The notes: generated by a model not told the origin, from the letters alone. Counted from the first letter of the stretch, positions 32,756-48,672 are shown. The stretch: 64,000 nucleotides of DNA from Bryobacterales bacterium (GCA_003142185.1 PLOR01000022.1:2336-66335); one strand, 5' to 3'. A program made the numbers and translations.

Positions 32756-33424
32756 ATGCGCATGCTACTTACCGTCGTGGCCCTGTCTGCTGCCGCGGGT
32801 TTCGCCCAGGATGTCGTCCAGTTGGCGCCTGAGCGCGTGAAAGTACTCATTGAAAATGACCAAGTTCGTGTGCTCCGTTTCAGCGAGCCTGGGCACAGCA
32901 AGCTGCCGATGCATTCGCACCCGCCCTACGTGTCGGTGGCGTTCACGGCTGACTATTCCAAGTACATGTTTCCCGATGGGAAAACCAGTGAGGAACACAC
33001 CAAAGCGGGCGCCGTTGACTTTTTCAAAGCCGTCACGCACGCGTTCGAGAATCTTTCCGACAACACGGCTGAGTCCATCATGGTGGAGTTGAAGGACCGG
33101 CCGCCCGCAGCCGCGGCGGTGACGACGGAGATGGACCCCGTCAAAGTCGATCCCAAACATTACAAGGTGTTGATCGACAATGACCGGGTTCGCGTACTGC
33201 GAGCCAGGTACGGGCCACACGAGAAATCGGTGATGCACGAACATCCGGCCTCGGTCGCCGTGTTCATGACGGACAGCCACGCCAAATTCAGACTACGGGA
33301 CGGCACGTCCCAGGACATCAATACCAAAGCCCGCGATGTGACTTGGGCGCCCGCGGGAAAGCACCTGCCGGAAAACCTCGGCGACAAGCCGATGGAAGTG
33401 ATCGTGATCGAACTAAAGAGATAG
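32756..33424 (+). CDS. Secreted bicupin-like protein (two tandem cupin-like repeats)
   Basis: 222 aa with a signal peptide. There is an internal duplication: VKVLIENDQVRVLRFSEPGHSKLPMHSHPPYVSVAF versus YKVLIDNDRVRVLRARYGPHEKSVMHEHPASVAVFM. Confidence 0.6.
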   Translation: MRMLLTVVALSAAAGFAQDVVQLAPERVKVLIENDQVRVLRFSEPGHSKLPMHSHPPYVSVAFTADYSKYMFPDGKTSEEHTKAGAVDFFKAVTHAFENLSDNTAESIMVELKDRPPAAAAVTTEMDPVKVDPKHYKVLIDNDRVRVLRARYGPHEKSVMHEHPASVAVFMTDSHAKFRLRDGTSQDINTKARDVTWAPAGKHLPENLGDKPMEVIVIELKR

Positions 33425-33526
33425 CCGAAGCCACCTGAATGGGCTCCTGCCCCAAAAGGTAAAAGGGTGTTCAGGAGCCCCGAATCCACGGAGGTGCAGG
33501 CTTGGCGGTTCTCTGCGGAATAGGCG

Positions 33527-33550
33527 GCGTTAACGCGCCTTATCGGCCGA
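33527..33550 (+). repeat. Copy 9 of bipartite motif
   Basis: GCGTTA ACGCGCCT TATCGG CCGA, 100 bp downstream of the 33424 stop. Confidence 0.75.
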
Positions 33551-33764
33551 AGCGACACTAGCCTCCTGATCTTGGCCTCCCCGCCGCTCAGGCGAGCATC
33601 GAGGTCGGTTGGGAGATACTATTAGTCTGACCGAGACGCCGAACGTTGCCCTTTCTCAAGAGTTAGACTGCTATGCCGACCGACCCCAGGGAATACATCT
33701 GGCGTGGGCTCGAACATTCCCAGAGTGCTCCCCGTTCCGGACAAGTGAAGGCTTTTGCCTCACG

Positions 33765-33797
33765 GCGTTATGACCTGATCTCGCCAGCCCTGCGCTG
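33765..33797 (+). repeat. Copy 10 of bipartite motif (long form, second half degenerate)
   Basis: GCGTTA TGACCTGA TCTCGC CAGCCCTGCGCTG. It matches copy 4 at 29 of 33 positions. Confidence 0.65.
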
Positions 33798-33945
33798 TCA
33801 GCCCGTGCGTAGTGGCCGGTTGGCTGCTTTGCGATTCTTCGGCGCCAGCACAACGAAGGCTTCCGCCGCCGAAGCGCCGCCCGAGCCAGAAACCGAAGGG
33901 GGCCGTCGTGTATGGATGCGCTGTGCGACGGCAGAATTCTGGCGG

Positions 33946-34188
33946 TTAGGTCTCAGATCTTTCCGGCGGGCGCTTGGCACCCCGGCCCAGGAGCTGATGC
34001 AGGGCAAAGGGAACTTCGTCGGGGTGCGTTGCGCACCAGGCCACGATGCGCTCGAACTTGACGGTATCCTCAGCGATAGCGCTGATTTCCATCAGCTCGG
34101 TTTCGATGATCTCCGGGTCTCGCATAGAACATCCAGCATGGCACACGGCGGCCACCATTGGCACATTGGTTGGCTCGTTATCTACCAT
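33946..34188 (-). CDS. Small hypothetical protein
   Basis: 80-aa ORF, acidic and helical (DPEIIETELMEISAIAEDTVKFERIVAWCATHPDEV), divergent from the carbamoyltransferase. No family was recognised. Confidence 0.3.
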   Translation of the reverse strand: MVDNEPTNVPMVAAVCHAGCSMRDPEIIETELMEISAIAEDTVKFERIVAWCATHPDEVPFALHQLLGRGAKRPPERSET

Positions 34189-34338
34189 ACATAACTGCGC
34201 CTGCGGTCGTGCGGGCGCGATCCGGGCCGATCTCTGTGCGGCTCCCTTCCCAACGGTGGTCTACTCCGGCCGGCTATTCGCGCTCACCCGCTCATCATGC
34301 GGGGCAAAGGCGGTAGAATCGAAGGCTAGGAGAGGCCG

Positions 34339-36207
34339 ATGGATCGAAACACTGCGCGGCAAGACGCCTGGATACTTGGCATCAACTCCGCTTACCACGA
34401 ACCGTCGGCGTGTTTGGTCCACAACGGCAAGCTTGTGGCGGCTGCCGAGGAAGAGCGGTTTAGCCGGGTGCGGCATGGAAAGCCGGCGGATTTGAAGAAC
34501 CCGCATTGGCTGCCGGAGCAATCCATCCGGTATTGCCTCGCGGAAGCGGGTATTGAATCAGGAGCTATCACCGAGGTCGGCTACTCTTTTGCGCCCGAGT
34601 TGCGACTTGCCGGAAACGTAGCTGTCGACACCGAAGCCACTCCCGAAGGTGCGGGGACCATAGAAGGTGAGGAGCGATTCTATCGGCTTCTCCGCCAAGT
34701 GCCGCAACGGCTGAGCCTGCTGTTGGGGCAGGATGTGCGAGATCGGTTCCGCTGGATCGAGCACCACCTCTGTCACGCTGCCAGCGCGTTCTTTGTGTCT
34801 CCTTTTGAGGATGCGGCTGTTCTCTCCGTGGATGGGATCGGCGAGGCGGCCACCACTTGGCTGGGCCGGGGGCAAGGCAATCGCCTCCACTTACTCGCTG
34901 AGTTCGGGTATCCGAATTCGCTGGGTCTTCTTTGGACAAAGCTCTCCCGGTTCCTCGGCTTTGGGAACTACGGCCAATGGAAGGTCATGGCCTTGGCCGC
35001 TTACGGCGACCCGGATCGTTTCTATCCCGCCTTCCGGACTTTTGTGGAGTGCGACGACTCCGGCAATTTCGAGGTCGATGGCCGCACACTGCAGTTTCGC
35101 GTCGAGAGTTGCGCGTCGCTGGAACGGCTCTTCGGCCCTCGCTGCGGCAGGGAGGAAGAACTGGATGACCGCTTCCGCGACATCGCTGCCGCTCTCCAAC
35201 GAGTGACCAATGAGGCCCTTCTCGCTGTCGTGCGCCGGCTGAAGGCAGAGACAGACAGTAAGAATCTGTGCCTCGCGGGCGGTGTGGCGCTGAACTGCGT
35301 TGCCAACCGGTTGCTGCTGGAGGAAGGCGGCTTCGAAGACCTGTTCGTCCAGCCTGCCGCGAACGACGCAGGCACCGCGCTGGGTGCGTGCTATTACTTG
35401 TGGAACCAGGTGCTCGGCGGCGAACGCGTCGAGACAATGGTGCACTCCTACCTGGGACCGTCCTTCGCCCGGGACGCAGTGTGCTTGCTTTCGCAAGTTA
35501 ACCCGGAGGCGGTGGCCAAAGCGAGCAACCTGCCGGCACAAGTCGCCCGTCTCATCGCGCAAGGCAGCACGGTGGCGCTATTCCAGGGCCGCATGGAGTT
35601 TGGCCCGCGCGCGCTTGGCAACCGCAGTATCCTCGCCGATCCAAGGCGAGCCGATATGGTGCGGTTGCTGAATGACAAAGTGAAGCAGCGCGAGTGGTTC
35701 CGTCCATTCGCCGCCAGCGTGCTGGCGGAGCGTGCCTGCGAATGGTTTGCCATGGAACGGCGGACCATCGCCGATCGCTTCATGGTCCTCGCCTATCCTG
35801 TACGCCCGGAGAAGCTGGGCTTGATTCCCGCGGTCACTCACGTGGATGGCACCACGCGCCTCCAGACTGTGGATCGTGAGAACAACCTGGTGTTCCATCA
35901 AGTGATCGAAGAGTTCGCGCGCATCACCGGCGTGCCGCTGGTGCTGAACACATCTTTGAACGAGAGTGAACCTATCGTCTGTTCGCCGGCGGACGCGCTG
36001 CGTACTTGTCTGAAGTCGGGTGTTGACTACCTCGTGATCGAAGGTCACATCGTCGATATCGCCAGATGCCACGCGAGCGTGGCAGCCCTGCTCGACGTAA
36101 CTCCGCCGGTGCGCGATTCCATGCCGCAGCAGCAATCGTCGCCGGATTCGGCAGATGCGGAACCGGCGTTGGACGAGGATGTGGCGGCGGTCTTCATGAG
36201 CCGGTAG
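34339..36207 (+). CDS. NodU/CmcH/TobZ-family carbamoyltransferase
   Basis: 622 aa. The N-terminal ASKHA-like signature is ILGINSAYHEPSACLVHNGKLVAAAEEERFSRVRHGK, with HHLCHAASAFF further in. The C-terminal YrdC/carbamoyl-AMP domain includes FQGRMEFGPRALGNRSILADPR. Confidence 0.9.
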   Translation: MDRNTARQDAWILGINSAYHEPSACLVHNGKLVAAAEEERFSRVRHGKPADLKNPHWLPEQSIRYCLAEAGIESGAITEVGYSFAPELRLAGNVAVDTEATPEGAGTIEGEERFYRLLRQVPQRLSLLLGQDVRDRFRWIEHHLCHAASAFFVSPFEDAAVLSVDGIGEAATTWLGRGQGNRLHLLAEFGYPNSLGLLWTKLSRFLGFGNYGQWKVMALAAYGDPDRFYPAFRTFVECDDSGNFEVDGRTLQFRVESCASLERLFGPRCGREEELDDRFRDIAAALQRVTNEALLAVVRRLKAETDSKNLCLAGGVALNCVANRLLLEEGGFEDLFVQPAANDAGTALGACYYLWNQVLGGERVETMVHSYLGPSFARDAVCLLSQVNPEAVAKASNLPAQVARLIAQGSTVALFQGRMEFGPRALGNRSILADPRRADMVRLLNDKVKQREWFRPFAASVLAERACEWFAMERRTIADRFMVLAYPVRPEKLGLIPAVTHVDGTTRLQTVDRENNLVFHQVIEEFARITGVPLVLNTSLNESEPIVCSPADALRTCLKSGVDYLVIEGHIVDIARCHASVAALLDVTPPVRDSMPQQQSSPDSADAEPALDEDVAAVFMSR

Positions 36208-36213
36208 GCTCCT

Positions 36214-37389
36214 GTGCCGGAAGACACAGAAATGATCGATCTGGTTCCGGCGGACGGATACGTTGTTTCTCCCCTCGACTTCGCCGCACGCTTTTCGACG
36301 AACCTGTCCGGCGTGGAACGAATCTTCCTGGAGCAAAACGCGAGTCTCTTTGGCACCGAGGCGGAGATTCCTCCCACGCTGCGCACACCTTGGATTGCCG
36401 CCAGCGGCTCTGCCGGCGAAAACGCAGATCGGATCGTAGCTCGTCCCTCGGGCGTACGGTCCGCCGTATGGGATGCCGAACAAATCCAGTTCAAGGGATG
36501 CCGCCCGGCGCCTGAGGCCGCAGACTTCCCTTTCGAGCACGTGGAGTTCGGAGGCGACAGGATTATCTCGACGCGCGTCCCGTTCGGAGTCATGACGGCA
36601 GAGGCTGTCAGTCGCGAGTTGCTGGGTCACTGCTTCTGCAAGACTTATGGCATTCCGTGCGCCACCACTCCGATGTGTGTATTCGGTTATTCCAGCGGAC
36701 CCGCCGCAAACCGTTTCTGTTTGGTGTTGAAACTGGCAGGTGGAACGCGGGCGGAGAAGTTTCTCGGCACCAAACCGTTGCCCGTGTCGGAGCTTGTGTC
36801 GCCGTCGGCGGACAGCGCAGTCTTCACTGGTTCGGAGGTCGTAATGGAGGGCCTGAACACGGTGTGGCACGCGGACCAGAAGGGACGGTGGCTTGCCGAG
36901 TTGCATTTTCGCGGCGCATTTCGCGGCCTTCTAAACAACAACGTCGGCAACGATGTCGTCCAGTTCCTACCCAGCGGGAAGCATCGTTTCCTTCTACGCG
37001 ACTTCGATTCGTTCCAACTCATTTCGCTTCCATTGGCAGCATCGCGCGAGTTCCTGAGCGCGTTCGCCGTGCAGTGCGTGGTGGAAGTTGTCAAGGGAAG
37101 CTTGCCGATTCTGGATTATGTCTCCACGCAGACAGGTGAGGACGCGCAGCAGGTTTTGCCGCGGATCGGCGCCGTCTACCGGCGGAAAAGCTCACTCTGG
37201 AATTCCTACTTCCGCTATGCCCGGCTCAAGGCGCGGGCACTCGCATGGAGCGAGGCGGAATTCGTATCCGCTACCGAACGTGCGTTCGAATCCATGGCGT
37301 TTCTGGAGGCCTCTTGTTCGGTGATTCTGAGTGACTACGCCCTGGAGCGCCTTCGGCGGCGCCGGCCTCAACCGTACGTGTTTCACTGA
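36214..37389 (+). CDS. Hypothetical protein, possibly kinase-fold
   Basis: 391-aa ORF, 7 bp after the carbamoyltransferase stop. The segment NNNVGNDVVQFLPSGKHRFLLRDFDSF resembles a catalytic-loop plus DFD metal-binding motif of Kdo/aminoglycoside-kinase folds. This reading is tentative. Confidence 0.5.
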   Translation: MPEDTEMIDLVPADGYVVSPLDFAARFSTNLSGVERIFLEQNASLFGTEAEIPPTLRTPWIAASGSAGENADRIVARPSGVRSAVWDAEQIQFKGCRPAPEAADFPFEHVEFGGDRIISTRVPFGVMTAEAVSRELLGHCFCKTYGIPCATTPMCVFGYSSGPAANRFCLVLKLAGGTRAEKFLGTKPLPVSELVSPSADSAVFTGSEVVMEGLNTVWHADQKGRWLAELHFRGAFRGLLNNNVGNDVVQFLPSGKHRFLLRDFDSFQLISLPLAASREFLSAFAVQCVVEVVKGSLPILDYVSTQTGEDAQQVLPRIGAVYRRKSSLWNSYFRYARLKARALAWSEAEFVSATERAFESMAFLEASCSVILSDYALERLRRRRPQPYVFH

Positions 37390-37405
37390 GCCAGGTTTGA
37401 CTGAG

Positions 37406-38608
37406 ATGCCGCACGACCACGCTGACCACTCACCCGCTGATCGTATTCTGCGTGGCGGAAGGATCTACACGCAGGATCCGTCTCGTCCATGGGCCGAAGC
37501 TTTGGCTGTCTCCGGCAATCGCATATCAGTCATCGGTTCCAATGCCGATGTCGACAGTCTCGCCGGGCCCCATACCCAGATGATCGAACTGAACGGCCGG
37601 TTCGTCATGCCGGGCTTCAATGACGCCCACATCCATTTCACTCCCTCCATGCTTCCCCTTCTGCGCCAGTGCGGGATCACAACCGCACAGACCATTACCG
37701 AGGTGGCTGACTTGCCGGAGTACGTCCGGCTGGCCGGCGAAGGGGCCTTGACCGTGCGGCTGGAAGTCCGTTTGCCGTTGCAAACATGGAGCGAGTTTCC
37801 ACGCTACCGCGCACTGGCCGCGCAGACTGGCGGAATGGTCGAGGTCATCGGGCTGAAGGCCTATGCCGATGGGATGCTGCGGAAACGTACTGCGTTCTTG
37901 CTGGAGCCTTACAGCGGCTCTGCCTCTGGCCGCGGTTCGCTAACCAAAGCGGCGGCGGACACCGCGGTCTTCGACAGAATGCTGGACGGTGCTGTCTCGG
38001 TCGGTGCCGACGTGAGCACTCATGCCATCGGAGACGCCGCGACTCGGTTCGTGTTGGGGCACTACGAGAACCTGATCGCCCGGCACAAACTGGCAGGCCA
38101 TAGGCTTCGAGTCATCCACGCGTCTCTCGTTTCACCAGTCGATTTCTCGAGGTTTGGCGCGTCGAACATCATTGCGGAAGTCAATCCCTATCACGCCATG
38201 GCCATCCCGTGGCTGAAGAACATAGTGGGTGAGGAGCGGACGCGTTGGGCCTTCGCTTTTCGGACACTCAAGGCCAACGGCGCTCGTCTGTGCTTCGGTT
38301 CCGACTATCCCGGACCCGATGGCCGGCCGGAGTTCCCACTCAATCCTCTATCCGGAATTCAGGCCACCGTTCTCCACGAGAATCCGCAGGAGCGATTGAG
38401 TGTCCAAGAAGGCTTGGCGGCTTACACGATCGGTTCCGCCTACGCCAGCCGGCACGAAGATCTCAAAGGCGCGTTGCAAGCCGCAATGGTGGCGGATCTG
38501 ATCGTACTTTCGGAGAATCCGCTCGAAGTCGCCGCCGACCGGATCGATTCCATCCGTGTCATCCAGACGTGGATGAACGGGAACATCGTGTTTCAGGGGC
38601 CTGCCTAG
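37406..38608 (+). CDS. Metal-dependent amidohydrolase (amidohydrolase_3 / YtcJ-like)
   Basis: Start at MPHDHADH. The sequence ILRGGRIYTQD...AVSGNRISVIGSN...IELNGRFVMPGFNDAHIHF contains the HxH metal motif, and the C-terminal end DLIVLSENPL is typical of the family. Confidence 0.8.
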   Translation: MPHDHADHSPADRILRGGRIYTQDPSRPWAEALAVSGNRISVIGSNADVDSLAGPHTQMIELNGRFVMPGFNDAHIHFTPSMLPLLRQCGITTAQTITEVADLPEYVRLAGEGALTVRLEVRLPLQTWSEFPRYRALAAQTGGMVEVIGLKAYADGMLRKRTAFLLEPYSGSASGRGSLTKAAADTAVFDRMLDGAVSVGADVSTHAIGDAATRFVLGHYENLIARHKLAGHRLRVIHASLVSPVDFSRFGASNIIAEVNPYHAMAIPWLKNIVGEERTRWAFAFRTLKANGARLCFGSDYPGPDGRPEFPLNPLSGIQATVLHENPQERLSVQEGLAAYTIGSAYASRHEDLKGALQAAMVADLIVLSENPLEVAADRIDSIRVIQTWMNGNIVFQGPA

Positions 38609-38612
38609 CTTC

Positions 38613-39995
38613 TCACAGCTTGGCTTCGCCCAACTCGACCGCCCTCTGCTTCAGATAACCGATGATTTCGACCAGTTGAGGAACTTGTGTGCCGCTCCCC
38701 TCGCGCGCCTGTTGCAGCATCTCGAGGTTGGCGATCGTCGTTTGCACGTGCCACGCAAACTTTGCCGCGGCCAGCGTCCTGGGCAACACGGCGTTCGCGC
38801 TCTTCCAATCGCTCCCGATTGCGGCGAGCTCCAGCACGGTTGCGAGATCCCAGTAGTCGCTGGATGCGGCGCCGCCGCGGCGTGCGACGGCAAAGTTGAC
38901 CAGGGGTAACATCTGCTCGGCCTGCTTCAGATCCCCCTTTTCGATCATCAGGCTGATCGCGTTCACCCCGGGATAGTAGTCTCTGGGGTCCGATTCGAAA
39001 CCCTTTTTGTAAGCGCCGATGGCATCGTCCAGCGCGGCAGTTGCCATCAGGTTCTTGGCCGCTTTCAGCTCCTTGTATCGGTCCTTGTGAACCCTCCCCA
39101 GAATTCCCAACGTCTCCGGGTCCGGGCCGCGTTCCTTCAGCAGTTTGTCCAGGATCGAGATAGCTCTGTCGCGGTCGCCCGGCAGCTTCCGGCGATTGAG
39201 CGCCAGCGCCCACTGCTGTCTGACGACCACGTAGTCCTTGAGGTAGTCGGGGAAAGCGTCGCAGAGTCGGACCATGAGATCCCAAGCGCTCACATCGCGA
39301 TAGGAAAGCATGAGGTCGACGAGCACGCCCGGTTGGGCCGCCTTCAGGTTGCCCAGGCTCTCCTGCACCTGAAGCAGCGCGGCCGCCCGTTGCGCGTCCG
39401 TGGGTCCGCCGCGCGCTTCCGCCAGCTTCAGGCGGAACTCGTCTTCGTGCTTCACGCGGTCCTGAAACGCTTCCGTGACCTCGTGGGGCAGATCGATGCC
39501 GGGGAAATCGGGGATCAATTGAAACAGCGGACTGTCCTTGACCGCTGGTCCCTCCATGACCGCCAGCAGGCGGGCGGTAATGGCCGCCTTGAGCGCGGAG
39601 GCCGCTTCCGCGGTTAGCTTTCCGTTTTCGAGCGTGTAGCCGATGGCGCGCACCATGGCCACGTCGAACGGAAGCGGGTGAATATTGGCGAAGATGGGAA
39701 CCGTCGTGAACGGCCTTGCCGCGTGGCGGATGCCAAGCTCGTAAAACACGTTCGGGTTGGCCAGTGTGAGGTCGGCGACTACGTACTCGGAAAGCAGCAA
39801 CCGGGCGAACATCGGAGCATGAATGATTCCGCCCGTCCGCTCCTCATCGCCCCGTATTGCATCGAGTCCCGCCGCTAGGATCGCCGGTTTGATGGCGTCG
39901 TTGTAAACCTGGTCAAAATCGATCTCGACGCCGGTGGAAGGGTCTTGCTTCTTCTCAAACGGCATGTCCACGAAACAGAGTGCTTGTAGGCTCAT
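38613..39995 (-). CDS. NDT/SLOG/TIR-like Rossmannoid N-domain fused to a helical-repeat (TPR-like; possibly MAP3K-TRAF-binding/DUF4071-like) body
   Basis: 460 aa. The N-terminal pattern is beta1 CFVDMPF, then LDAIRGDE, then SEYVVADLTLANPNVFYELGIRHAARPFTTVPI. This resembles the aD..A.l....D.GT.fElGyA pattern of nucleoside 2-deoxyribosyltransferase / SLOG-type nucleotide-binding folds. Residues from about 200 to 460 are helical repeats. Confidence 0.55.
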   Translation of the reverse strand: MSLQALCFVDMPFEKKQDPSTGVEIDFDQVYNDAIKPAILAAGLDAIRGDEERTGGIIHAPMFARLLLSEYVVADLTLANPNVFYELGIRHAARPFTTVPIFANIHPLPFDVAMVRAIGYTLENGKLTAEAASALKAAITARLLAVMEGPAVKDSPLFQLIPDFPGIDLPHEVTEAFQDRVKHEDEFRLKLAEARGGPTDAQRAAALLQVQESLGNLKAAQPGVLVDLMLSYRDVSAWDLMVRLCDAFPDYLKDYVVVRQQWALALNRRKLPGDRDRAISILDKLLKERGPDPETLGILGRVHKDRYKELKAAKNLMATAALDDAIGAYKKGFESDPRDYYPGVNAISLMIEKGDLKQAEQMLPLVNFAVARRGGAASSDYWDLATVLELAAIGSDWKSANAVLPRTLAAAKFAWHVQTTIANLEMLQQAREGSGTQVPQLVEIIGYLKQRAVELGEAKL

Positions 39996-40124
39996 TGTGC
40001 CAGTGCTCCAGGGCTTTGCGGATCGATTGGATCCGGGTGCCCTCGTTGGCCGGGTAGGTTCCCGGCTCGTTAGTGATTCCGTAAATCAAGACGGTGGGGG
40101 CCATGTCGTTGAACTTACCCTATC

Positions 40125-41255
40125 CTAGTTCTTATCCGTACCCCTCTTACGAAAACTCTTCACAAATCCGTCGATTTTCGTGGGATCAGAGAGCATTTCC
40201 ATGGCGTTTAATACTCTGCGGACAAGATCTTTCCGATACGTCTTGACCACCTTCTCTTTACTAGCGTACAGCTGCCGTATGTATTCGTCGGGAGGGAACC
40301 ACTGCGTCATCGCGATCTCAATCTTCTCTTCAGAATCGCACTTTTCCAGCCTGATGGGCAGCAGACACTGGCCGTCCCGCGTTCTTCTGCGCAGGATGGT
40401 GAACAGCTCCTTCTTTTGTATGAAATCCGACGCATGGAAGCGCGGGCTCATCAGCGCCAGCGCCAGGTCACAGTGCCGAAGCGCAAACTTGATCTCTTCT
40501 TCCCAACGGAGGCCCGTCTGGATGCCCTGTTCCCAGAAATCGTCCTGTCCCGGCACATCATCGGCCCTCTTCGGCGGCGGCTTCCGATCCCACCAAAGGA
40601 AAACGTGCTCTTTACCGAGAGCCGCTTCTGTCGCAGCGCGAAGATCCTCAAAATATGTGTCGTCAACCCTAGCCCCCTTCGGGACTATGTCTTTATGTGC
40701 GTAACAGACAAACACGGTTGTGAGCCATCTCAGGTTCGTCAGCGTTTTCCCAAGACCCTCGACGAACTCCCCGAGCAGCGCCCGCGCTGCCGGAACCCGG
40801 TTCTCTTTCAGCCGGTCCAGGACGCGCCAGTGATGGCGGACCAACCGTCGGATATAAGCCTTGTGCTGAGGAGGCGACCATCCTGGAAAAGTCAGATAAT
40901 CCAACAATCCCAGCTTTGCGTCCTTCGCCTCGGCGTCAATGCCCGCTACGATACTGTTGTAAGCCTCAAGGGTCGAGCGGGCGGTCGTGCCGGATAGTGT
41001 TGCGGCGGAGGAAGCGAGCAGATTCACCATCGTTCGCTCCAGATGGTAAAGGTCCATCAGACTCTTGCGGAGTTGGAGCTTTTCGTCCAGCCAGAGATTC
41101 AGTTTTTGCTCGGTGTAGGGGTCGGGTTTCGAAAAGTCGGTAAGTGCCTTAGTGCATTCGACTAGCTGCTCGCCTAGCAATTTAACGCACGTGTTGCAAA
41201 CCCCAACAAAACGCTTGCGGTCCTGAATGAATGCTTGGCTAGCCCGCGAAGTCAC
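40125..41255 (-). CDS. TIR-domain protein with unassigned helical N-terminal domain
   Basis: 376 aa with a GTG start (uncertain). The C-terminal half reads VFVCYAHKD...HVFLWWDRK...RWEEEIKFALRHCDLALALMSPRFHASDFIQKKELFTIL...LLPIRLEKCD. This gives the TIR betaA, the D/W box and the S-x-F-x3-E glutamate. Local GC is about 50%. Confidence 0.75.
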   Translation of the reverse strand: MTSRASQAFIQDRKRFVGVCNTCVKLLGEQLVECTKALTDFSKPDPYTEQKLNLWLDEKLQLRKSLMDLYHLERTMVNLLASSAATLSGTTARSTLEAYNSIVAGIDAEAKDAKLGLLDYLTFPGWSPPQHKAYIRRLVRHHWRVLDRLKENRVPAARALLGEFVEGLGKTLTNLRWLTTVFVCYAHKDIVPKGARVDDTYFEDLRAATEAALGKEHVFLWWDRKPPPKRADDVPGQDDFWEQGIQTGLRWEEEIKFALRHCDLALALMSPRFHASDFIQKKELFTILRRRTRDGQCLLPIRLEKCDSEEKIEIAMTQWFPPDEYIRQLYASKEKVVKTYRKDLVRRVLNAMEMLSDPTKIDGFVKSFRKRGTDKN

Positions 41256-41333
41256 AGTGATACAGCGCCTTTCTCCCTGCTTCCGCGCGCGCCTCTATGC
41301 GAGCCGAGCCCGCTATGGCGCGTGCCGTTTCGC

Positions 41334-42563
41334 TTATTCCTCGGGTTCTTGACCGCTCAGCCAGCTTAGTTGAAGCGCGTCGCGATAAACACGATCCATC
41401 AGGTCCATCTTCTCAATCAATGTACTCTTCAGTTCGTCCAGGCGAAATATCTCCCGGAGTTTCAGATAGAGTTTCGAAAGGGCGTCACCCGCGATGATGT
41501 ATACAGTCGGGTCTTCCAAGCCGGTGGCAAGCATCTGACGCAGCGACAGCACCTTGCTTTGCTTGAAGAGTTTTTTCTTCTTCGGATCGACCATCTGTCG
41601 TATGGTAAGGTCGATCAGCTTGTTTAGTGTCACCAGCGAGTGCCAGCGAGCTCTCACCATTTCACAAACGTCAAGCAACCCAGGCACGAAATACGACGCC
41701 GGATCGACATCGGAGTTTTCACATACGCACAGAATCGAACGGCGAGACATGCAAACGAAGAGTCGCGCGTCCAGATTCACGCTGAAAAGTCCCGGGATGC
41801 CAACCGGAGTGGGTGGCTCAACGTACGCAGGTTCCAGGAAGAGTTGGTCAGCGACCGAACGGAACAGGATTGGAGCTATCGATGGTTCGTACCTCCGAAT
41901 CTTAATCATCTTGGTGCGAGCCGGGTCGTCGGCGGCATCGCCGTGACCGCAGAATGCCTCTGCGATTTCACCATCGACTGCAGCCACCGTAACTAGCCAA
42001 GGGCTTTGGCCTTCTCTGCCGGGCTCGATCAAGTCGTACTTCACGTCCAAACGGTCGAGGGAGTGTTCTGTGCAGAGATTAGTGACCAGTTCCTCAAAGC
42101 GGTCGTAAAGGCTCTTACGGCCAGAACCTTCACCTTCTAAGTACATTGGCTCCGGGGCCACTGTCGATGCCCCCGGCCTCTGCGAAGTCAGGTTCAGAAG
42201 CTTCAGGATGTCAACGGTGGAGAGTTTCTGCGTGGGCTTGCCGGTTACGTCGAGAGTCAGGCAACAGGTTGCACCACTCGGAAAGATCCGAATCAGCGAA
42301 CCGAAGGAAAACTCCCGTCCGGCAACGGTCCCGCTGCGCTTGGAGGATTCAAACCAGGCGGAATCTGCCCTTAGCGACAAGTGTGGGACGATGCTCTCGC
42401 GACTGCTGGGAGTGCCCATGTGCTCTGTCCCTCTTGCTTTGGGCAAGTCGGGCGGGTAGACGGCTTTGCCGTTCTTAAAGGCGGGCACAAACGAGTAGAT
42501 GAAGTAAACCGTGACTCTATGACAGGAAAATGGGACGGTCAGTGTCGCTTTGTCTTCAGTCAT
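41334..42563 (-). CDS. Hypothetical 409-aa protein, no recognisable domain
   Basis: Long ORF at about 50% GC with a GAGG 9 nt upstream of the ATG. It starts 15 bp after the ABC ATPase stop. No TM segment and no catalytic motif was recognised by eye. Confidence 0.6.
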   Translation of the reverse strand: MTEDKATLTVPFSCHRVTVYFIYSFVPAFKNGKAVYPPDLPKARGTEHMGTPSSRESIVPHLSLRADSAWFESSKRSGTVAGREFSFGSLIRIFPSGATCCLTLDVTGKPTQKLSTVDILKLLNLTSQRPGASTVAPEPMYLEGEGSGRKSLYDRFEELVTNLCTEHSLDRLDVKYDLIEPGREGQSPWLVTVAAVDGEIAEAFCGHGDAADDPARTKMIKIRRYEPSIAPILFRSVADQLFLEPAYVEPPTPVGIPGLFSVNLDARLFVCMSRRSILCVCENSDVDPASYFVPGLLDVCEMVRARWHSLVTLNKLIDLTIRQMVDPKKKKLFKQSKVLSLRQMLATGLEDPTVYIIAGDALSKLYLKLREIFRLDELKSTLIEKMDLMDRVYRDALQLSWLSGQEPEE

Positions 42564-42578
42564 GGGTCGGTGCCTCGC

Positions 42579-43361
42579 TCATGCGGATTTCTCCAGCGCC
42601 TCGCGGCGGAAGATTTCCAACGCTTGTTTCTTCATCGAGGCGAATGCCTCGCTGCCCATTTGAGTCAGTTCCTTCTGGGCCGGCAGTTTGCTCTCCAGCA
42701 CCGCGGCGACGCTGGCCGGGCGCTTGGTCAGGAATACCGTCCGCTCGCCCAGGTAGATCGCTTCGTCGATATCGTGCGAGACCAGCAAAATGGTAACCCC
42801 GGTCGCTTCCCAGATCTGCAGCACCTTCTCATACAGGCTAAGGTTGGTCTGATAGTCGAGGGCGGAGAACGGCTCGTCCATGATAAGAATGTCGGGGTCG
42901 AGGATCAACGCGCGCAGAATGGACGTCAGTTGCGCCTGCCCGCCCGACAGCGCATAGGTGTAAGCGCCCAGATCAATCCGGAACTGGAAACGGGCCACCA
43001 CCGCTTCCACCTTGCTCATCCGCTCGGGCTTCGAAACGCCGCGGATCCGCAGCGGGAAGGCGATGTTCTCGGCGACCGTAAGCCACGGCATCAGGTATCC
43101 GCGGTAGTCCTGAAACACGTAGCCGACGCGCGGGCGGGATGTGCCGCCATTCATCTTGACGCTCCCCTCGTCCAGGCTTTCCACGCCGACGATGACGTTC
43201 AGCAGAGTGGTCTTGCCGCAGCCGTTCGGCCCGAAGAACGTCAAAAACTCGCCTTTGCGGACGTCCAGCGAGAAGTCGCGCAGGACCACGTTGCGCTTCT
43301 GACCCTCGCCAAACGCCTTCGAGGCGTGCTCGATCTCGATGTATAGGGGACGATCGCTCAC
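42579..43361 (-). CDS. ABC transporter ATP-binding protein (NitT/TauT family)
   Basis: GTG start at 43361 overlaps the permease stop (GTGA). Motifs: Walker A GPNGCGKTT, signature LSGGQAQ, Walker B ILIMDEPFSALD. The longer ORF 42579..44093 overlaps the permease out of frame and is rejected. Confidence 0.9.
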   Translation of the reverse strand: MSDRPLYIEIEHASKAFGEGQKRNVVLRDFSLDVRKGEFLTFFGPNGCGKTTLLNVIVGVESLDEGSVKMNGGTSRPRVGYVFQDYRGYLMPWLTVAENIAFPLRIRGVSKPERMSKVEAVVARFQFRIDLGAYTYALSGGQAQLTSILRALILDPDILIMDEPFSALDYQTNLSLYEKVLQIWEATGVTILLVSHDIDEAIYLGERTVFLTKRPASVAAVLESKLPAQKELTQMGSEAFASMKKQALEIFRREALEKSA

Positions 43362-44170
43362 TTTCCCGTCCAGAACACGATTCGCGTCTCTGCCCACACG
43401 AAGCCGCGGTTGATTAAGTAGCCCAGCAACCCAATTAATACGAGAACGGCATACAACTTCTCCGTGTCGTTCACGGTATAGGCATCGAATACCCGCTGGC
43501 CGAGCCCCAATTGCGTGCCGATAAACATCTCGCTGACGATGACCACCACCAGGCAGAGCGACAGCGAGGTCCGCATGCCTGACAGCGTCTGGGGCAAAGC
43601 TTCGAAAAAGACCACCCAACGGAAGACTTGCCATTCGGACGCCCCGAACACCCGCGCTGCCCGCAGCCGCGTCTCTTTGGCCTGCAGCGCGCCGTAGGCG
43701 CAGTTCAGAATGACGACAAAGAGCGCGGCCGAAAACGCCATCGCGATCTTGGCGCTGTCTCCGATGCCGAAGAGCAGCAGGAAAAGCGGAAAGAGCGCCG
43801 TCACCGGAAGCGAGCGGAAGAAGTCGAGCGTAGGGTAGCTGGCCGCATAGACCTTGCGGGAATTCCCGATAAACAGCCCAAACGGAACGCCGATCAGGCA
43901 TCCCAGAATGTAGCCGCAGCCCCATCGCCAGGCGGTGGCGCCGATGTCGGAAGTCAAGTGCTCGTGGAGAAACAGCCCCACCAATCGCCTGAACGTAGCG
44001 GTCGGGGATGGAACCAATAGAGGGGGAACCAACTTCAAGCCTGTGACCAGATACCACAACGCCAGACACAGCAGGGGGAGAGCGAAGCCCCACACCCCGA
44101 TCCGCACACCGGCGCTACGTCCCGCGGGCGGAGCATCCTTTGTCCTGATCTCTGGAGTTGGCATTGGCAC
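43358..44170 (-). CDS. ABC transporter permease (NitT/TauT family)
   Basis: 270 aa with six hydrophobic segments and the EAA-like loop ...AARVFGASEWQVFRWVVFFEALP. Confidence 0.85.
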   Translation of the reverse strand: MPMPTPEIRTKDAPPAGRSAGVRIGVWGFALPLLCLALWYLVTGLKLVPPLLVPSPTATFRRLVGLFLHEHLTSDIGATAWRWGCGYILGCLIGVPFGLFIGNSRKVYAASYPTLDFFRSLPVTALFPLFLLLFGIGDSAKIAMAFSAALFVVILNCAYGALQAKETRLRAARVFGASEWQVFRWVVFFEALPQTLSGMRTSLSLCLVVVIVSEMFIGTQLGLGQRVFDAYTVNDTEKLYAVLVLIGLLGYLINRGFVWAETRIVFWTGK

Positions 44171-44176
44171 GGAAGA

Positions 44177-45187
44177 TCACTTTGCCGTGGGAGTGGTTCT
44201 GGCGGCATCCGCCTGTCGCAGAAAGCTGAGATCCAAAACGTCGGTATAAGCAGGCACCGGCTTGTTGTCGAGGCCTTTCTGTGTCGCCTTCGCCCACTGG
44301 CCGGTGCTGGCGAAAACGTTCAACAGCCCCTCGTCCGCCTGCACGTTCAGCTCATATTCGCCCCAGATGGCGGTGAGAACCGACGGATCCATTTGCATCT
44401 CCTTGGCCAGAATCGCAATGGCCTCCTCACGGTGGTCCTTGACGAACGCCTCAGCGCGGATCAGGGCCTTCAGAAACGACCGGATTCGAGCCGGCTCGGC
44501 CTTGGCAAAATCGCCCCGCACCGCCAGCAATCCATACGCGGTGTAAATCCGCGGATCGTTGAACTGCACCAGCTTGCCGTCGAGCGCCTGCTCGACGTTG
44601 TAGCGGTATGGCTGCCAGACCGATCCCGCGGGGATGCTCCCATTCAGCACCGAGGCCTGAATGCTGGGTGCCGTCAGGCTGAGAAACTGGATCTTCTTTC
44701 GGTCCAGCTTGTAGAAATCGACGAAAAGGTCCGCGAACCGGTGAGAAGTCGTGCCGGGAACCAGAGCCAGGGTCTTGCCCTCCAGATCCTTTGGCGTTCG
44801 GATGCCCTTGTCCCGCCGCGCCATGATCGCGTCATCGTGCTTCCGCATGACGCTGGCGATCACCTTGACGTCGGCCCCCTCCTGGAACTTCACAAAGGCG
44901 ACGTTGGTCTCCACGATGACGCCGAAATTCAGGTCGCCACTAACCACCGCATCCATCGCCACTTTGCCCGTTTGCAGATAATTGGGCCGGACGTCCAGAC
45001 CTTCCGCCTGGAAGAAGCCTTTCTGCTGCGCGATGATCGGCAGCATCGAGATATTCGTGGGGCCACCCCACACGAGTGGCTTCAAAGCAGATCCCTTGGA
45101 GGCGTAGCGATAGATCGCGATGCCGACAGCCAGAACGACCACCGCAGTGGCAACCACCCACGTCAGAGTACGGCGTTTCGCCATCAT
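44177..45187 (-). CDS. ABC transporter substrate-binding protein (NMT1/ThiY/SsuA-like)
   Basis: Start at MMAKRR (ATG 45187), preceded by GGAGGAG. It has an N-terminal anchor helix and then a periplasmic-binding fold (PIIAQQKGFFQAEGLDVRPNYLQTGKVAMDAVVSGDLNFG). Confidence 0.8.
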   Translation of the reverse strand: MMAKRRTLTWVVATAVVVLAVGIAIYRYASKGSALKPLVWGGPTNISMLPIIAQQKGFFQAEGLDVRPNYLQTGKVAMDAVVSGDLNFGVIVETNVAFVKFQEGADVKVIASVMRKHDDAIMARRDKGIRTPKDLEGKTLALVPGTTSHRFADLFVDFYKLDRKKIQFLSLTAPSIQASVLNGSIPAGSVWQPYRYNVEQALDGKLVQFNDPRIYTAYGLLAVRGDFAKAEPARIRSFLKALIRAEAFVKDHREEAIAILAKEMQMDPSVLTAIWGEYELNVQADEGLLNVFASTGQWAKATQKGLDNKPVPAYTDVLDLSFLRQADAARTTPTAK

Positions 45188-45568
45188 CCCAGACTCTCCT
45201 CCGAAAGGTTCAAGGACTTCCAGAATACCGCAAAAGCGATTTCCCAAGAGGGACTTGAGAATGCCCTGAAGTTCTGTCGGCCCAGATGGTCAAACGCTCC
45301 TCCCGGGCAGAGGATCAATCCGGACATCGCCTTCGCGCAAAGCTCGCGCCTTCAATCACCACTCCGGCAAATTTCCCAATCCGCTGTCCCCATAGGCCTT
45401 ACACCATCTTCTGCGTACTCCGGATGCCGCGCCGCCCGCCTTCCTGTGCCACAGTGAGATTGGGAAGCAAAGCGGGACTGGCACGAATCTCGCTGCTCTT
45501 GCGAAACTTCGTGCCAGTACCCGGTTTGCTTGGGTGCCCCGCTTCGTTTTTCGCCCGGTTCACTGGCT

Positions 45569-45656
45569 CCGTGGGAACGATCGTGCCCACGGATGGCCGC
45601 CGGTTCTTATTGCTTTCAGTAACTTAACACCTGCCCGTGGGCACGATCGTTCCCAC
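45569..45656. repeat. Pair of near-palindromic 20-mers in perfect inverted orientation
   Basis: CCGTGGGAACGATCGTGCCCACGG (45569-45592) and CCGTGGGCACGATCGTTCCCAC (45635-45656). The 20-nt cores are exact reverse complements. Each core is itself an imperfect palindrome around CGATCG. Confidence 0.8.
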
Positions 45657-45677
45657 CGGGCTGTACCGATCCGGCGC

Positions 45678-47306
45678 TCACCCCATGCGCAGCAAATCGG
45701 GGCTCGTATGGGGAAGAAATGAGGCGCCCACAAACTCGTCCATGTAGCCGGCGAGATCGGCGAGGTCCACGTAGGTCACGCGCGTAAGATAGGTGGCGAT
45801 TTCATCGCGGAACTCGCGCGAGAGCAGGCTCAGCGCGGCGCCTTCGAGCGATCCGTTATCGATGTAACCGTAGCGTCCGAGCGGGATGTCCGGCAGCAGC
45901 CCGATTCCCACCGCGGCCGGCAGGTTGAGATAGCGGCCGAAGTTGCCCGAGACATACGCTCTCTCTATGGAGGGGCCGCCCGGGCCGAGCGAATCGACCA
46001 GCGAGCGTATGCCCGCGAAGATTGCCGCTTTGGCGCGAATGAGACTCGCCAGGTCCCGCTCCCAGAGCGCCACGCGCTGGTCGGCGGAGAGTGCAATCGC
46101 ACCGCCCCACTTGCCTTCCATGCGGCGTTCCCCGGGCACGCGCGCGGTTAGCCTGCCGCCGCGGTCAATCCAGCCGGCGCGGAACAGGGCGTCGGCCAGC
46201 GCGATCAACCCCGACCCGCACAGGCCGCGGACGCGTCCACCGCCAATCACGGAAAGCTCCATCGCGCCACTTTCCCCATCGATGGCGGCGCCGTCCACCG
46301 CGCCACGGTCCGCGCGCATGCCGCAGCGTATCCCGCCGCCTTCAAACGCCGGGCCCGCACTGCACGCGCACGCCAGCGCGAAATCGGCATTGCCGAAGAC
46401 GATCTCGCCGTTCGTCCCCAGGTCCACGTAGAGGGCCGTCTCAGTCGCGCGTGAGAAGCCGGCGCGCACCGCCCCGGCCAGTATGTCGCCGCCGACCCAT
46501 CCGCCCGCGCCTGGAACGCTGTCGACCGGCGCACCGCGGCCGGGCCATCCCAGGTTCGCCGCGTCCACCGGGCGAAAGGCCAAGGCGCGCGGCTGCGATG
46601 GTACGCGGCGAATCCCCGAGGGATCCTCGCCCAACAGCAGGTGGATCATGGTGACGTTGCCCGCCACCACGTAGCCGCGGATGCGCCCTGGATCAAGGCC
46701 TCCAGCCGCCGCTTCGCCGATCATCGAAACCACAGCCAGGCGAATCGAGGATGCCAGTTCGCCCAGCCCGCCCTTCTCCGCCGCGACGATGCGGGAGATC
46801 ACGTCGGCGCCTTTCGAGATCTGCGGATTGTAAGCCCCGGCCTCGCCCACGATCACGCCATCGGACAGACGGATCAGCAGCAGCCGCAATGTGGTGGTGC
46901 CGATATCGAGAGCCACGCCCAGATCCTCCGGCTCGCGGCATTCCACCAGCGGCGCCAGCTCGAGCGGCCAGGGAGCCCACGCCGAAAGAGCATCCGTACC
47001 GATGTACCGGTCGCTCGAGACCAGCTTGGGTAGTTGCGCTTCCACCAGCGGCTCGACGGTCAGCGGTCCATGCACGGGCGTGAGGCACGCCAGCACTTGC
47101 GGGAAGCCGGATTCGCGCCGCAGAACGCGGTACTCGGGGACCTGCCCTTCGAGAATGCGTACCAGGCAGCGCCCGCACGCGCCTCGTCCTCCGCATTCCG
47201 CGCGCACCGGTTCGCCGGCCAACTCGGCGGCGCGCAGGATGCTCGATCCCTCCGCGACGCTGGTGGAGCGGCCGGAGGGTGAGAACCGGACTGGGTGCGA
47301 AGGCAT
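45678..47306 (-). CDS. Reductive activator of the corrinoid Fe-S protein (RACo; 2Fe-2S ferredoxin + ASKHA/DUF4445 ATPase)
   Basis: 542 aa. The N-terminal plant-type ferredoxin motif is CGGRGACGRCLV, followed by the ASKHA fold (LDIGTTTL...VDLGTNGEIV). Confidence 0.85.
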   Translation of the reverse strand: MPSHPVRFSPSGRSTSVAEGSSILRAAELAGEPVRAECGGRGACGRCLVRILEGQVPEYRVLRRESGFPQVLACLTPVHGPLTVEPLVEAQLPKLVSSDRYIGTDALSAWAPWPLELAPLVECREPEDLGVALDIGTTTLRLLLIRLSDGVIVGEAGAYNPQISKGADVISRIVAAEKGGLGELASSIRLAVVSMIGEAAAGGLDPGRIRGYVVAGNVTMIHLLLGEDPSGIRRVPSQPRALAFRPVDAANLGWPGRGAPVDSVPGAGGWVGGDILAGAVRAGFSRATETALYVDLGTNGEIVFGNADFALACACSAGPAFEGGGIRCGMRADRGAVDGAAIDGESGAMELSVIGGGRVRGLCGSGLIALADALFRAGWIDRGGRLTARVPGERRMEGKWGGAIALSADQRVALWERDLASLIRAKAAIFAGIRSLVDSLGPGGPSIERAYVSGNFGRYLNLPAAVGIGLLPDIPLGRYGYIDNGSLEGAALSLLSREFRDEIATYLTRVTYVDLADLAGYMDEFVGASFLPHTSPDLLRMG

Positions 47307-47322
47307 CGGCGATCAACCGGTG

Positions 47323-48672
47323 TTACGGATGCGTTCCCAAGTCGCGGGCCAGCGGTCCCCAGACATCGCGGAAGAAGGGCGCGATGTCGGACGCCTCTTG
47401 CGGGCCCACCAGCACATGCCAGCCGTCACCCAGGGCATCCTCCAGTTCGCCGGAAATTACCGGGACATATCCGGGAATGATCACGGTGTGGTGGCTCACG
47501 CGTTCGGCTGCTTTCATCTCGCGGAGGGCTTTGGCCACGCGGTCGCCCGAAAATTTGCCGGCGGACCAGGCGGTCAGCACGCTCAGTCCTTCGGCATCCA
47601 CCACGGCCAGATGACACGCCACGCCGGAAGCTTCCGCTTCCGTCGAGACAATGAAATAGGTCAGCGAAAAATTGGAGGTGACCAGCAGCGGCGACCGGTC
47701 GTTCGGCTCGCCGATGGCATACAGGCCGGGGTCCATTTGCAGCGGCTTTTGCGGGTCGGTGTAAATGTTCTGCCGCAGGGTCCAGAGGGGCAGCCAGGTC
47801 TCCCCGCCGCAATCGGCCAGAGCCACGAGCGACGCGAACTTGGTGATGCCCAGCACGGCTTTTTCGATCTCACCGGCGCCCACGCACAGGAAGACCGGGT
47901 GGCCCAGGCCTGGATGGATGCGGTCGAGCGCGCCACGGCGGATGGCGCTGAGGCTGTGATGCAGCAAGCGCGGATCGGCGCCGGGTGGTTCGAGCAGAAT
48001 ATCGGTGACGCCAGCGCGCGCGGCGTCGCGGGCCGCGTCGGCCAGCGAGGCCAGGTCCGGCGCTCCCACCACCAGCGGTATGCCGAGACGCGCAGCCAAA
48101 GCGGCGTATCCCTCCAGGTTCGCGCCAGCGGGTGGAACCAGCAGGGGGCGGTGCTCTTTGATTCTCTCCGCGATGGCGGTCGCGCCGGGCAGCGTCGCCG
48201 CGAGAATGGCAACCGGAAACCCGCGGTCAGAGGCAGCGACGGCGGCGGCTACGCTCTCCGCGGTTTCCACAACGGCGATGCCATCCACCTGAAACGTCTC
48301 TCCGGCGCGTTCGATGCGGATCGCGCGCCAGTGGTCCAGCTTGGCGTCGCGTTCGGCCGCCGTGAGTCCGGCGGGATCGAAAATCTGGAACAGTCCGGGA
48401 TGCCGCACGAAGGTCTTTTCGTGGCGGAAGAAAACCGTCTCTTCCCCGACTGTGATGGCTCGATCGCCGCGGCCGACGGTGACGCCACGAATGGGCGGCG
48501 CCGAGGCAGCACCTAGCGCCGCTTTGGCCTCCGGCGAGGCATCCGGGCACTTCTCCAGCGCTTCCTTTCCCGCGGCCAGCTTCATGGCGAAGGTCAGGCA
48601 GGTAGGATACCCGCACTTTTTGCAGTTGGTATTGGGAAGGAGTTTGAAAATCTGCAAACCGGTCAACGGCAT
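47323..48672 (-). CDS. acsC: Corrinoid iron-sulfur protein large subunit (AcsC / CdhE)
   Basis: 449 aa. The N-terminal 4Fe-4S motif is LPNTNCKKCGYPTCLTFAMKLAAG, followed by TIM-barrel and B12-binding parts. Confidence 0.9.
   Translation of the reverse strand: MPLTGLQIFKLLPNTNCKKCGYPTCLTFAMKLAAGKEALEKCPDASPEAKAALGAASAPPIRGVTVGRGDRAITVGEETVFFRHEKTFVRHPGLFQIFDPAGLTAAERDAKLDHWRAIRIERAGETFQVDGIAVVETAESVAAAVAASDRGFPVAILAATLPGATAIAERIKEHRPLLVPPAGANLEGYAALAARLGIPLVVGAPDLASLADAARDAARAGVTDILLEPPGADPRLLHHSLSAIRRGALDRIHPGLGHPVFLCVGAGEIEKAVLGITKFASLVALADCGGETWLPLWTLRQNIYTDPQKPLQMDPGLYAIGEPNDRSPLLVTSNFSLTYFIVSTEAEASGVACHLAVVDAEGLSVLTAWSAGKFSGDRVAKALREMKAAERVSHHTVIIPGYVPVISGELEDALGDGWHVLVGPQEASDIAPFFRDVWGPLARDLGTHP

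Follow-up and report, generated by a model that had tools for sequence, protein, structure and literature searches.

A two-gene cassette in a 64,000-nucleotide stretch of DNA from a Bryobacterales bacterium (GCA_003142185.1 PLOR01000022.1:2336-66335; the whole stretch is referred to here as the window) encodes a protein in which a helical N-terminal domain (the N-domain) is fused to a TIR domain, together with a second protein, termed here the partner. The cassette is best read as a modular conflict system of the defence type, with the TIR domain as its NAD+-cleaving output, a reading to which we assign a probability of about 0.55. The cassette consists of old, divergent, functional alleles that have been exchanged by recombination between near-identical backgrounds and are held under purifying selection. 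Its constant core is the partner plus the N-domain, to which at least three outputs are attached in different loci: the TIR domain, a protein with two transmembrane (2-TM) helices and a coiled-coil tail. The coordinates of all features are collected in Table 1.

Exchange of the cassette between near-identical backgrounds

The limits of the exchanged segment are set by alignments of the window with metagenome contigs of close relatives. L024 is 97.7% identical to the window at the nucleotide level over 39677-40026 and 97.8% identical over 42594-42864, and identity is lost between these two flanks. L026 is 98.7% identical over 42577-46268, with a break at the junction of the partner gene and the gene for the ATPase of a neighbouring ATP-binding cassette (ABC) importer, and L028 is 98.8% identical over 33045-40026, with identity lost beyond 40026. 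Between about 40027 and 42576, alignment with the window is limited to short, conserved parts of the partner gene, at about 70% nucleotide identity. The GC content over the cassette is 53-57%, as against about 60-64% in the flanks (measured in 600-nucleotide windows).

The same discontinuity is seen in the encoded proteins. The window and L024 share 47% of residues in the partner and 33% in the TIR protein, and within the close clade, which contains at least five allelic lineages, identity amounts to 87-100% in the three ABC proteins, as against 43-53% in the partner and 29-44% in the TIR protein. Synonymous divergence (dS) amounts to 0.015-0.4 in the flanks (0.015-0.05 for the ABC genes of the window and L026) and is saturated, at about 2 or more, in the cassette, where the ratio of nonsynonymous divergence (dN) to dS is 0.15-0.45. 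Because dS is saturated and dN/dS lies in this range, the alleles are old and functional and have been moved by recombination. Rapid positive selection in situ and recent hypermutation were considered as sources of the divergence and rejected, as dS is saturated and dN/dS is below 1.

Divergence is distributed unevenly along the two proteins. Among close alleles, the regions that diverge fastest are the C-terminal tail of the TIR protein, with 13-24% identity, the N-domain, with 23-27%, and the N-terminal half of the partner, with 25-39%; the TIR domain, at 34-46%, and residues 186-285 of the partner, at 66-74%, are better kept. For L021 and L022, which form the youngest pair of alleles, dS is alike in the cassette and the flanks, and the dN of the TIR protein is six-fold higher (0.228 versus 0.034-0.039). 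A promoter and terminator scan returned signals at background level.

A TIR domain with a conserved glutamate at the catalytic position

The open reading frame of the TIR protein is present exactly as given in the preliminary description of this DNA (40125-41255, minus strand, 376 residues, GTG start), and the peptides picked out there (VFVCYAHKD, FLWWDRK, ...LALALMSPRFHASDFIQKKEL and LLPIRL) are all located in the encoded protein, which consists of three parts: the helical N-domain (residues 1-179), the TIR_2 domain (residues 180-330) and two C-terminal helices. The GTG at 41255 is the earliest start codon downstream of an in-frame TAG at 41297-41295. The 5' end had been called uncertain on account of a distant Shine-Dalgarno-like element, and the GGGAG core does lie 17 nucleotides upstream of the GTG. 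The start itself nevertheless appears well supported from sequence comparison, because the L001 homologue (64% identical) has its initial ATG in the same alignment column, where the alignments of all family members also begin. The family comprises about 30-40 full-length representative clusters, as exposed by a full HMMER scan; a word-based homologue search with the TIR protein had returned only two relatives, or three with an alignment as the query.

The Pfam profile TIR_2 (PF13676) matches the protein with E=1.7e-8 and 35.4 bits, against a gathering cut-off of 28, and a six-frame search of the genome with this profile recovers the window TIR at 34.4 bits. The match is restricted to profile positions 33-105, corresponding to residues 242-319, because of a nine-residue insert after AHKD and an extended BB loop. 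The insert, which follows the beta-A motif VFVCYAHKD, is common only to the window allele and its closest allele, L001, and the BB loop is about 12-15 residues longer than that of AbTir. TIR_2 matches all ten relatives tested, and in seven the match begins at profile position 1. In NCBIfam, the sole match is a sub-threshold one, to FxsC-N (TIR-like), and the PADLOC ThsB1 profile matches weakly (E=2.5e-4, 18.3 bits) over only 67 residues. Four further TIR_2 domains are encoded in the genome (G000, contigs C78, C92, C66 and C24), and these score 64-102 bits, compared with 34 for the window TIR.

When the single TIR-protein sequence is used in a phmmer search of the PDB, no match is obtained; the profile of the family matches solved bacterial TIR NADases, with 7uxr at E=1.8e-5 and, in addition, AbTir (7uwg and 8g83), PdTIR (3h16) and Cat1 (9mud). 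In these profile-to-PDB alignments, E283 in the sequence QKKEL is placed on the Glu of WTNYEL in AbTir, which we take to be the catalytic Glu of that enzyme, and likewise on the corresponding Glu of BtTir and PdTIR. E283, Y185 and D263 are invariant in 45 of 45 full-length family members, S270 is conserved in 44, and F182 and W221 are each conserved in 43. The preliminary description had placed this Glu in the S-x-W-x3-E arrangement of NADase-competent TIRs; its position in the catalytic column is borne out, but the spacing in the window, S-x-F-x4-E, is one residue longer than the one quoted. A TIR match is thus present and the Glu aligns with the catalytic Glu column, the two points on which the identification had been made to depend, so that a real TIR domain with a conserved Glu at the catalytic position is confirmed at the level of sequence. 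The domain is predicted from these alignments to cleave NAD+.

The AlphaFold2 (AF2) model of the TIR protein, computed with nine family members, has a predicted local distance difference test (pLDDT) score of 82.5 and a predicted template modelling (pTM) score of 0.85. In residues 180-330, strands at 180-184, 219-222, 264-269 and 297-302 alternate with helices. In a Foldseek search of the PDB, the full-length model draws mostly TIRs (SPARTA TIR-APAZ, RUN1, L6, TLRs and ThsB) at probabilities of 0.9-1.0, and no match reaches E<=1e-3; this list is consistent with a TIR fold in the model, although it is not decisive.

The constant core and its exchangeable outputs

The partner gene directly precedes the N-domain gene in 18 of 18 distinct loci, with gaps of 1-78 nucleotides, and in the loci recovered the N-domain gene is always accompanied by it. 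The 39 partner homologues share 31-100% identity. In its AF2 model (pLDDT 86.3, pTM 0.89), a beta-rich N-terminal half is followed by very long C-terminal helices, and no transmembrane segment is present. The partner is assigned to no family by Pfam and PADLOC (E<=1) or by NCBIfam, and PADLOC v2 contains no model for it. The PHROG collection gives a single chance-level match (E=0.019), phmmer against the PDB gives chance matches only (GST, E of about 0.6), Foldseek against the PDB and BFVD gives none at E<=1e-3, and a scan of genome contigs with the single partner protein gives no match. The only resemblance that recurs in the PDB is to the cytosolic domain of CorA (5n77 and 8zah; Foldseek E of 0.08-1, probability 0.4-0.6), and the partner has no Pfam CorA match, no transmembrane helices and no GMN motif.

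The preliminary description had found the N-terminal half of the TIR protein to be helical and to resemble nothing recognisable, which agrees with the all-helical AF2 model and with the lack of any match for residues 1-179 in Pfam, NCBIfam, PHROG and the PDB. Conserved positions in the 45-member alignment are E73, K114, R136, H142, W143 and W177. Homologues of the N-domain can be recognised in loci that have no TIR domain. In L010, the partner is followed by a stand-alone 201-residue N-domain homologue and a 185-residue 2-TM protein; in L032, it is followed by a stand-alone 226-residue homologue and a 194-residue 2-TM protein; and in L031, a 404-residue protein combines the N-domain with a long coiled-coil-like tail. 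A hidden Markov model (HMM) of the N-domain, built from residues 1-179 of 45 sequences, yields 25.7 bits for the 201-residue protein, 15.1 bits for the 226-residue one and about 14 bits for the N-terminus of the 404-residue one. Judged from sequence, the similarity of these TIR-less proteins to the N-domain is modest, and the conserved position of their genes adds weight to it.

The 185- and 194-residue proteins, encoded at 5579-6136 in L010 and 6771-7355 in L032, are homologous to each other; both have a pair of neighbouring hydrophobic helices and share the conserved segment KPAE(N/D)LQISRGNL, and neither has a Pfam match. The idea that the L010 protein, which contains FYGKNIF, is a split CorA pore with a GMN-like motif was rejected, as its L032 homologue reads LCGKDVS at this site.

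The partner and the N-domain form the constant core of the system because N-domain homologues hold the same position in the TIR-less loci, and such swapping of outputs is a pattern typical of conflict systems. The N-domain had earlier been proposed to be a sensing or oligomerisation module. That it is a module is supported, since it is separable, stands alone beside a non-TIR output and belongs to the fastest-diverging regions; it may serve in phage sensing, in docking to the partner or in oligomerisation.

Linkage to an ABC importer

A NitT/TauT-type ABC importer lies no more than two genes from the partner in every locus whose flanks can be assessed. Four gene orders are found. In most loci, the order is importer, partner and TIR gene; in L010 and L032, a three-gene unit described below (the trio) is followed by the partner, the N-domain gene, the 2-TM gene and the importer; in L031, the partner and the N-domain gene precede the importer; and in L012, the partner and TIR genes are convergent with the importer. 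Except in L012, the cassette is co-directional with the importer, with gaps of 0-52 nucleotides or 4-nucleotide overlaps; the stop codon of the ATPase gene and the start codon of the partner gene overlap by 4 nucleotides in L007 and L013, and the gap in the window is 15 nucleotides.

Both the partner and the substrate-binding protein of the importer are rare. The subfamily of the binding protein was not found in 40 relatives (E<=1e-60) or in 400 sampled genomes of the phylum (E<=1e-40), and besides the genome of the window the partner was not found in 60 relatives or in 400 genomes of the phylum. The partner is accordingly found in 1 of 461 genomes searched and the binding protein in 1 of 441, and the two are met only together. 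The linkage of a TIR cassette to an ABC importer was not found in the literature searched, and the preliminary description mentions neither the partner nor the allele exchange nor this linkage. The linkage hints at a function tied to transport.

Neighbouring genes

Table 1. Features of the cassette and its surroundings, in window coordinates.
Feature	Coordinates	Strand	Basis or remark
N-domain-TIR protein	40125..41255	-	Intact 376-residue open reading frame, GTG start; TIR_2 35.4 bits; AF2 model
Helical N-domain, residues 1-179, adaptor-like	40719..41255	-	Seven AF2 helices within residues 4-179; no family match
TIR domain, residues 180-330	40266..40718	-	Holds catalytic-position Glu283 (codon 40407-40409)
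C-terminal two-helix tail, residues 331-376	40128..40265	-	AF2 helices 333-355 and 361-373; highly variable
Exchangeable two-gene cassette	40027..42576	.	GC trough between conserved flanks; partner and TIR gene
Partner, 409 residues, cytosolic	41334..42563	-	Beta-rich N-half, long helical C-half; 39 homologues
NitT/TauT-family ABC importer	42579..45247	-	Pfam and NCBIfam; always linked to cassette
Importer ATPase	about 42579-43352	-	
Importer permease	43358-44170	-	
Importer SsuA/TauA-like NMT1 binding protein	44177-45247	-	
TIR-like head with MAP3K_TRAF_bd/TPR-S, 460 residues	38613..39995	-	Outside swapped segment
Trio: NodU/CmcH-type carbamoyltransferase, 391-residue orphan, Amidohydro_3	34339..38608	+	Pfam

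Downstream of the cassette lies a variable slot that houses other conflict-type genes. In the window, it is occupied by a gene for a 460-residue protein that matches Pfam MAP3K_TRAF_bd (1.9e-43) and TPR-S (3.1e-25) and, in its TIR-like head (residues 26-121), a PADLOC TIR effector profile (3.5e-7); beyond the head, the sequence shows homology with the central regulatory part of human ASK1/MAP3K5 (5ulm, E=1.6e-18). A TPR-S/MAP3K_TRAF_bd protein with a TIR-like head is also present in L020, L028 and L008, and other occupants of the slot are a TPR-S-trypsin fusion in L026 and a TPR-S-patatin fusion in L008. The TPR-S gene was considered as an obligatory third component of the cassette and rejected, since most loci lack it and its position is outside the swapped segment. 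A 68-nucleotide part of the spacer that separates the TIR stop codon from the TPR-S start (40004-40071) matches two other sequences at 84-90% identity, namely the 3' terminus of the TPR-S-trypsin gene in L026 (8696-8763) and a segment of L025, and looks like a remnant of a former occupant of the slot.

In three alleles of the close clade, a 311-residue alpha/beta-hydrolase-like gene with the sequence MAHI(I/V)F(V/I)HGIANKP directly follows the TIR gene (L001 2348-2665, L021 3793-4728 and L026 6223-7158), and decayed fragments of it are seen in L005 and L020. The proposal that window positions 40104-39958 are a 5' remnant of this gene finds no tblastn support.

The trio, whose 391-residue orphan has no family match, is found near the cassette in the window and in L003, L005, L010, L011, L020 (amidohydrolase only), L026, L028 and L032. 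It also occurs without the cassette in the same-genus genome G003 (L017, G003:C23), at 88% nucleotide identity and in a different context, and this is the only other same-genus genome in which the trio was found. The trio is a rare mobile unit that recurs beside the importer and the cassette in the distant lineages L010, L011 and L032, of which L010 is an NCBI metagenome-assembled genome labelled Nitrospirae. On the other side of the importer, RACo and CdhD of the acetyl-CoA synthase corrinoid system (45678-48672, minus strand) adjoin it and are 92-94% identical in L003, L005 and L025; because of this identity, the contigs of these three loci come from close relatives of the organism to which the window belongs.

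Proposed mechanism and alternative explanations

In the defence reading, the partner would be a sensor or scaffold, and the helical N-domain would dock the output onto it. A trigger, such as a phage or other invader, would bring the TIR domains together and thereby cause NAD+ cleavage, and the depletion of NAD+, or possibly the formation of ADP-ribose (ADPR)-type products, would lead to cell arrest; in the TIR-less variants, the membrane protein would do the same job. The step from a polymorphic modular cassette to defence is one that we infer, and several results weigh against it. The Foldseek match of the full-length model to the TIR fold is non-significant (best TIR E of about 0.1). The similarity of the stand-alone N-domain proteins is weak, with a colinear hhalign alignment at E=0.046 and with HMM E-values that derive from a six-sequence database. 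No direct or inverted repeats are present at the cassette boundaries, no integrase flanks it, and no homologues are found on viral contigs. No sensor, NTPase or effector domain can be recognised in the partner, for which PADLOC and PHROGs likewise offer no match. Finally, strict linkage to the importer through four gene orders, some with overlapping stop and start codons, is unexpected for an autonomous defence cassette, and because this linkage is unexplained, confidence in a plain defence reading is only moderate.

A Thoeris-like arrangement would turn the roles of the two proteins around: the TIR protein would be the infection sensor that makes an ADPR-derived signal, and the 409-residue partner would be a new signal-activated effector, with the TPR-S protein possibly serving as a second receiver. 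The layout of a TIR gene plus a gene for a second protein is the one used to predict 29 Thoeris types (10.64898/2025.12.03.692087). The TIR protein is also more variable than the partner, as a sensor should be; the PADLOC match to ThsB1, weak as it is (E=2.5e-4), points in the same direction; and the many invariant Arg and Lys residues of the partner, including R92, K218, R275 and K385, could line a nucleotide pocket. In addition, AbTir and BtTir, the best relatives in the PDB, are producers of isomers of cyclic ADPR. However, the partner and N-domain stay in place when a 2-TM protein or a coiled coil takes over from the TIR domain, which is the behaviour of an output and not of a signal generator, and the arrangement is disfavoured because it is the TIR, not the partner, that is exchanged. 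The partner moreover lacks SLOG, Macro, SIR2, caspase, DUF2270, DUF6650 and toxic domains as well as a transmembrane helix, and the TPR-S gene, which most loci lack, is not part of the swapped segment. Altogether, a Thoeris-like role is unlikely.

The linkage to the importer raises the question of whether the partner and the TIR protein regulate, guard or use the product of the importer (and often that of the trio), for example, by sensing the imported ligand or misuse of the importer and responding with NAD+ cleavage. The importer is linked in every assessable locus through four gene orders, the ATPase and partner genes overlap by 4 nucleotides in L007 and L013, the partner is matched in rarity by the binding-protein subfamily, and the fold of the partner weakly resembles the ligand-sensing cytosolic domain of CorA. 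Against this, alleles of about 45% identity beside transporter genes of 97-100% identity do not suit a housekeeping regulator, the exchange of the TIR for a membrane protein speaks against a specific metabolic reaction, the trio is found without the cassette in G003, and the CorA resemblance is non-significant (E of about 0.08-0.3), so that such coupling is about as doubtful as the Thoeris-like role. Even less probable is an addiction module of the toxin-antitoxin kind, in which the TIR protein would be an NAD+-degrading toxin checked by the partner, and the pair would stabilise an accessory importer island instead of defending against phages. Toxins that degrade NAD+ and are paired with cognate immunity proteins are known in general, and the two co-oriented genes with short gaps, the polymorphic alleles and the constant tie to a rare accessory gene cluster are all features that such a module could have; yet the putative antitoxin, at 409 residues, is large and shows stronger conservation than the toxin, there seems to be no promoter for the pair itself (the gap to the ATPase gene is 15 nucleotides, with no promoter-like site nearby), and an adaptor domain with output swapping suits sensor-effector systems better. 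We regard this explanation as very unlikely.

Somewhat less improbable, though still tentative, is a polymorphic surveillance module that is coupled physically or functionally to the ABC importer and is not an autonomous defence system, in which the partner would monitor the importer or whatever enters through it and would fire the TIR NADase or the membrane-protein output. The cues for such a module might, at similarly low odds, be phage DNA, bacteriocins or contact-dependent toxins that misuse the permease, or else an imported signal peculiar to the strain. If this were true, the cassette would represent a transporter-guarding or allorecognition system with balanced alleles.

TIR enzymes are central to bacterial, plant and animal immunity, and what activates them is the main open question. 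The cassette offers a compact activation module, with a new helical adaptor and a new partner of about 410 residues wired to at least three outputs. The exchange of alleles in near-identical genomes provides a natural set of specificity variants to compare, and the importer linkage, if functional, would connect the uptake of nutrients with an enzyme of cell suicide. Work on the family is limited in practice by its rarity (1 of about 460 genomes searched) and by its hosts, which are uncultured bacteria of peat and soil.

Relation to known TIR systems

The best solved relatives of the window family are bacterial TIR NADases of the AbTir/BtTir/PdTIR (Tcp) type, which match with E-values of 1.8e-5 to 1.4e-3 and an aligned Glu, and with which it has in common the motifs F-x-x-Y/H-A in beta-A, W-x-D in beta-B and S-x-F/W-...-E-L. 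In the window family, the aromatic residue and the Glu lie one residue further apart than in these enzymes and the BB loop is longer by about 12-15 residues, and the window allele carries the nine-residue insert after beta-A. The window TIR is furthermore fused to a new 179-residue helical domain, not to a coiled coil, and always occurs with a partner gene. For the partner, the likeness to the CorA cytosolic domain lies in its topology, an alpha/beta sandwich followed by very long helices, and is a resemblance only.

Thoeris types I-XI consist of a ThsB TIR protein and an effector, and 29 types have been predicted (Yirmiya et al., bioRxiv 10.64898/2025.12.03.692087). The cassette resembles them in its operon of a TIR gene and a second gene, its patchy distribution and its conflict-type neighbours. 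It differs in that the effector and signal-binding domains listed by Yirmiya et al. (10.64898/2025.12.03.692087) are all missing from the partner, the TIR domain is the exchangeable part, and the partner gene comes first and is operonic with an ABC importer. A TIR domain that can be swapped alongside membrane effectors is shared with CBASS, Pycsar, SPARTA TIR-APAZ, Avs and the type III CRISPR proteins Cat1 and TIR-SAVED, and SPARTA TIR-APAZ and Cat1 are among the structural or sequence matches of the window family. In contrast to CBASS, Pycsar, SPARTA, Avs and TIR-SAVED, no CD-NTase, cyclase, prokaryotic Argonaute (pAgo)/APAZ, STAND NTPase, SAVED or CARF domain is detected among the window neighbours, and the sensor candidate of the cassette has an uncharacterised fold, which sets it apart from CBASS, Pycsar, SPARTA and Avs. 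Because the defining partners of these systems are absent, the cassette is not a member of CBASS, Pycsar, SPARTA, Avs or any Thoeris type named by Yirmiya et al. (10.64898/2025.12.03.692087). We would place it among the TIR-output conflict systems, with a helical adaptor and a partner that were previously undescribed.

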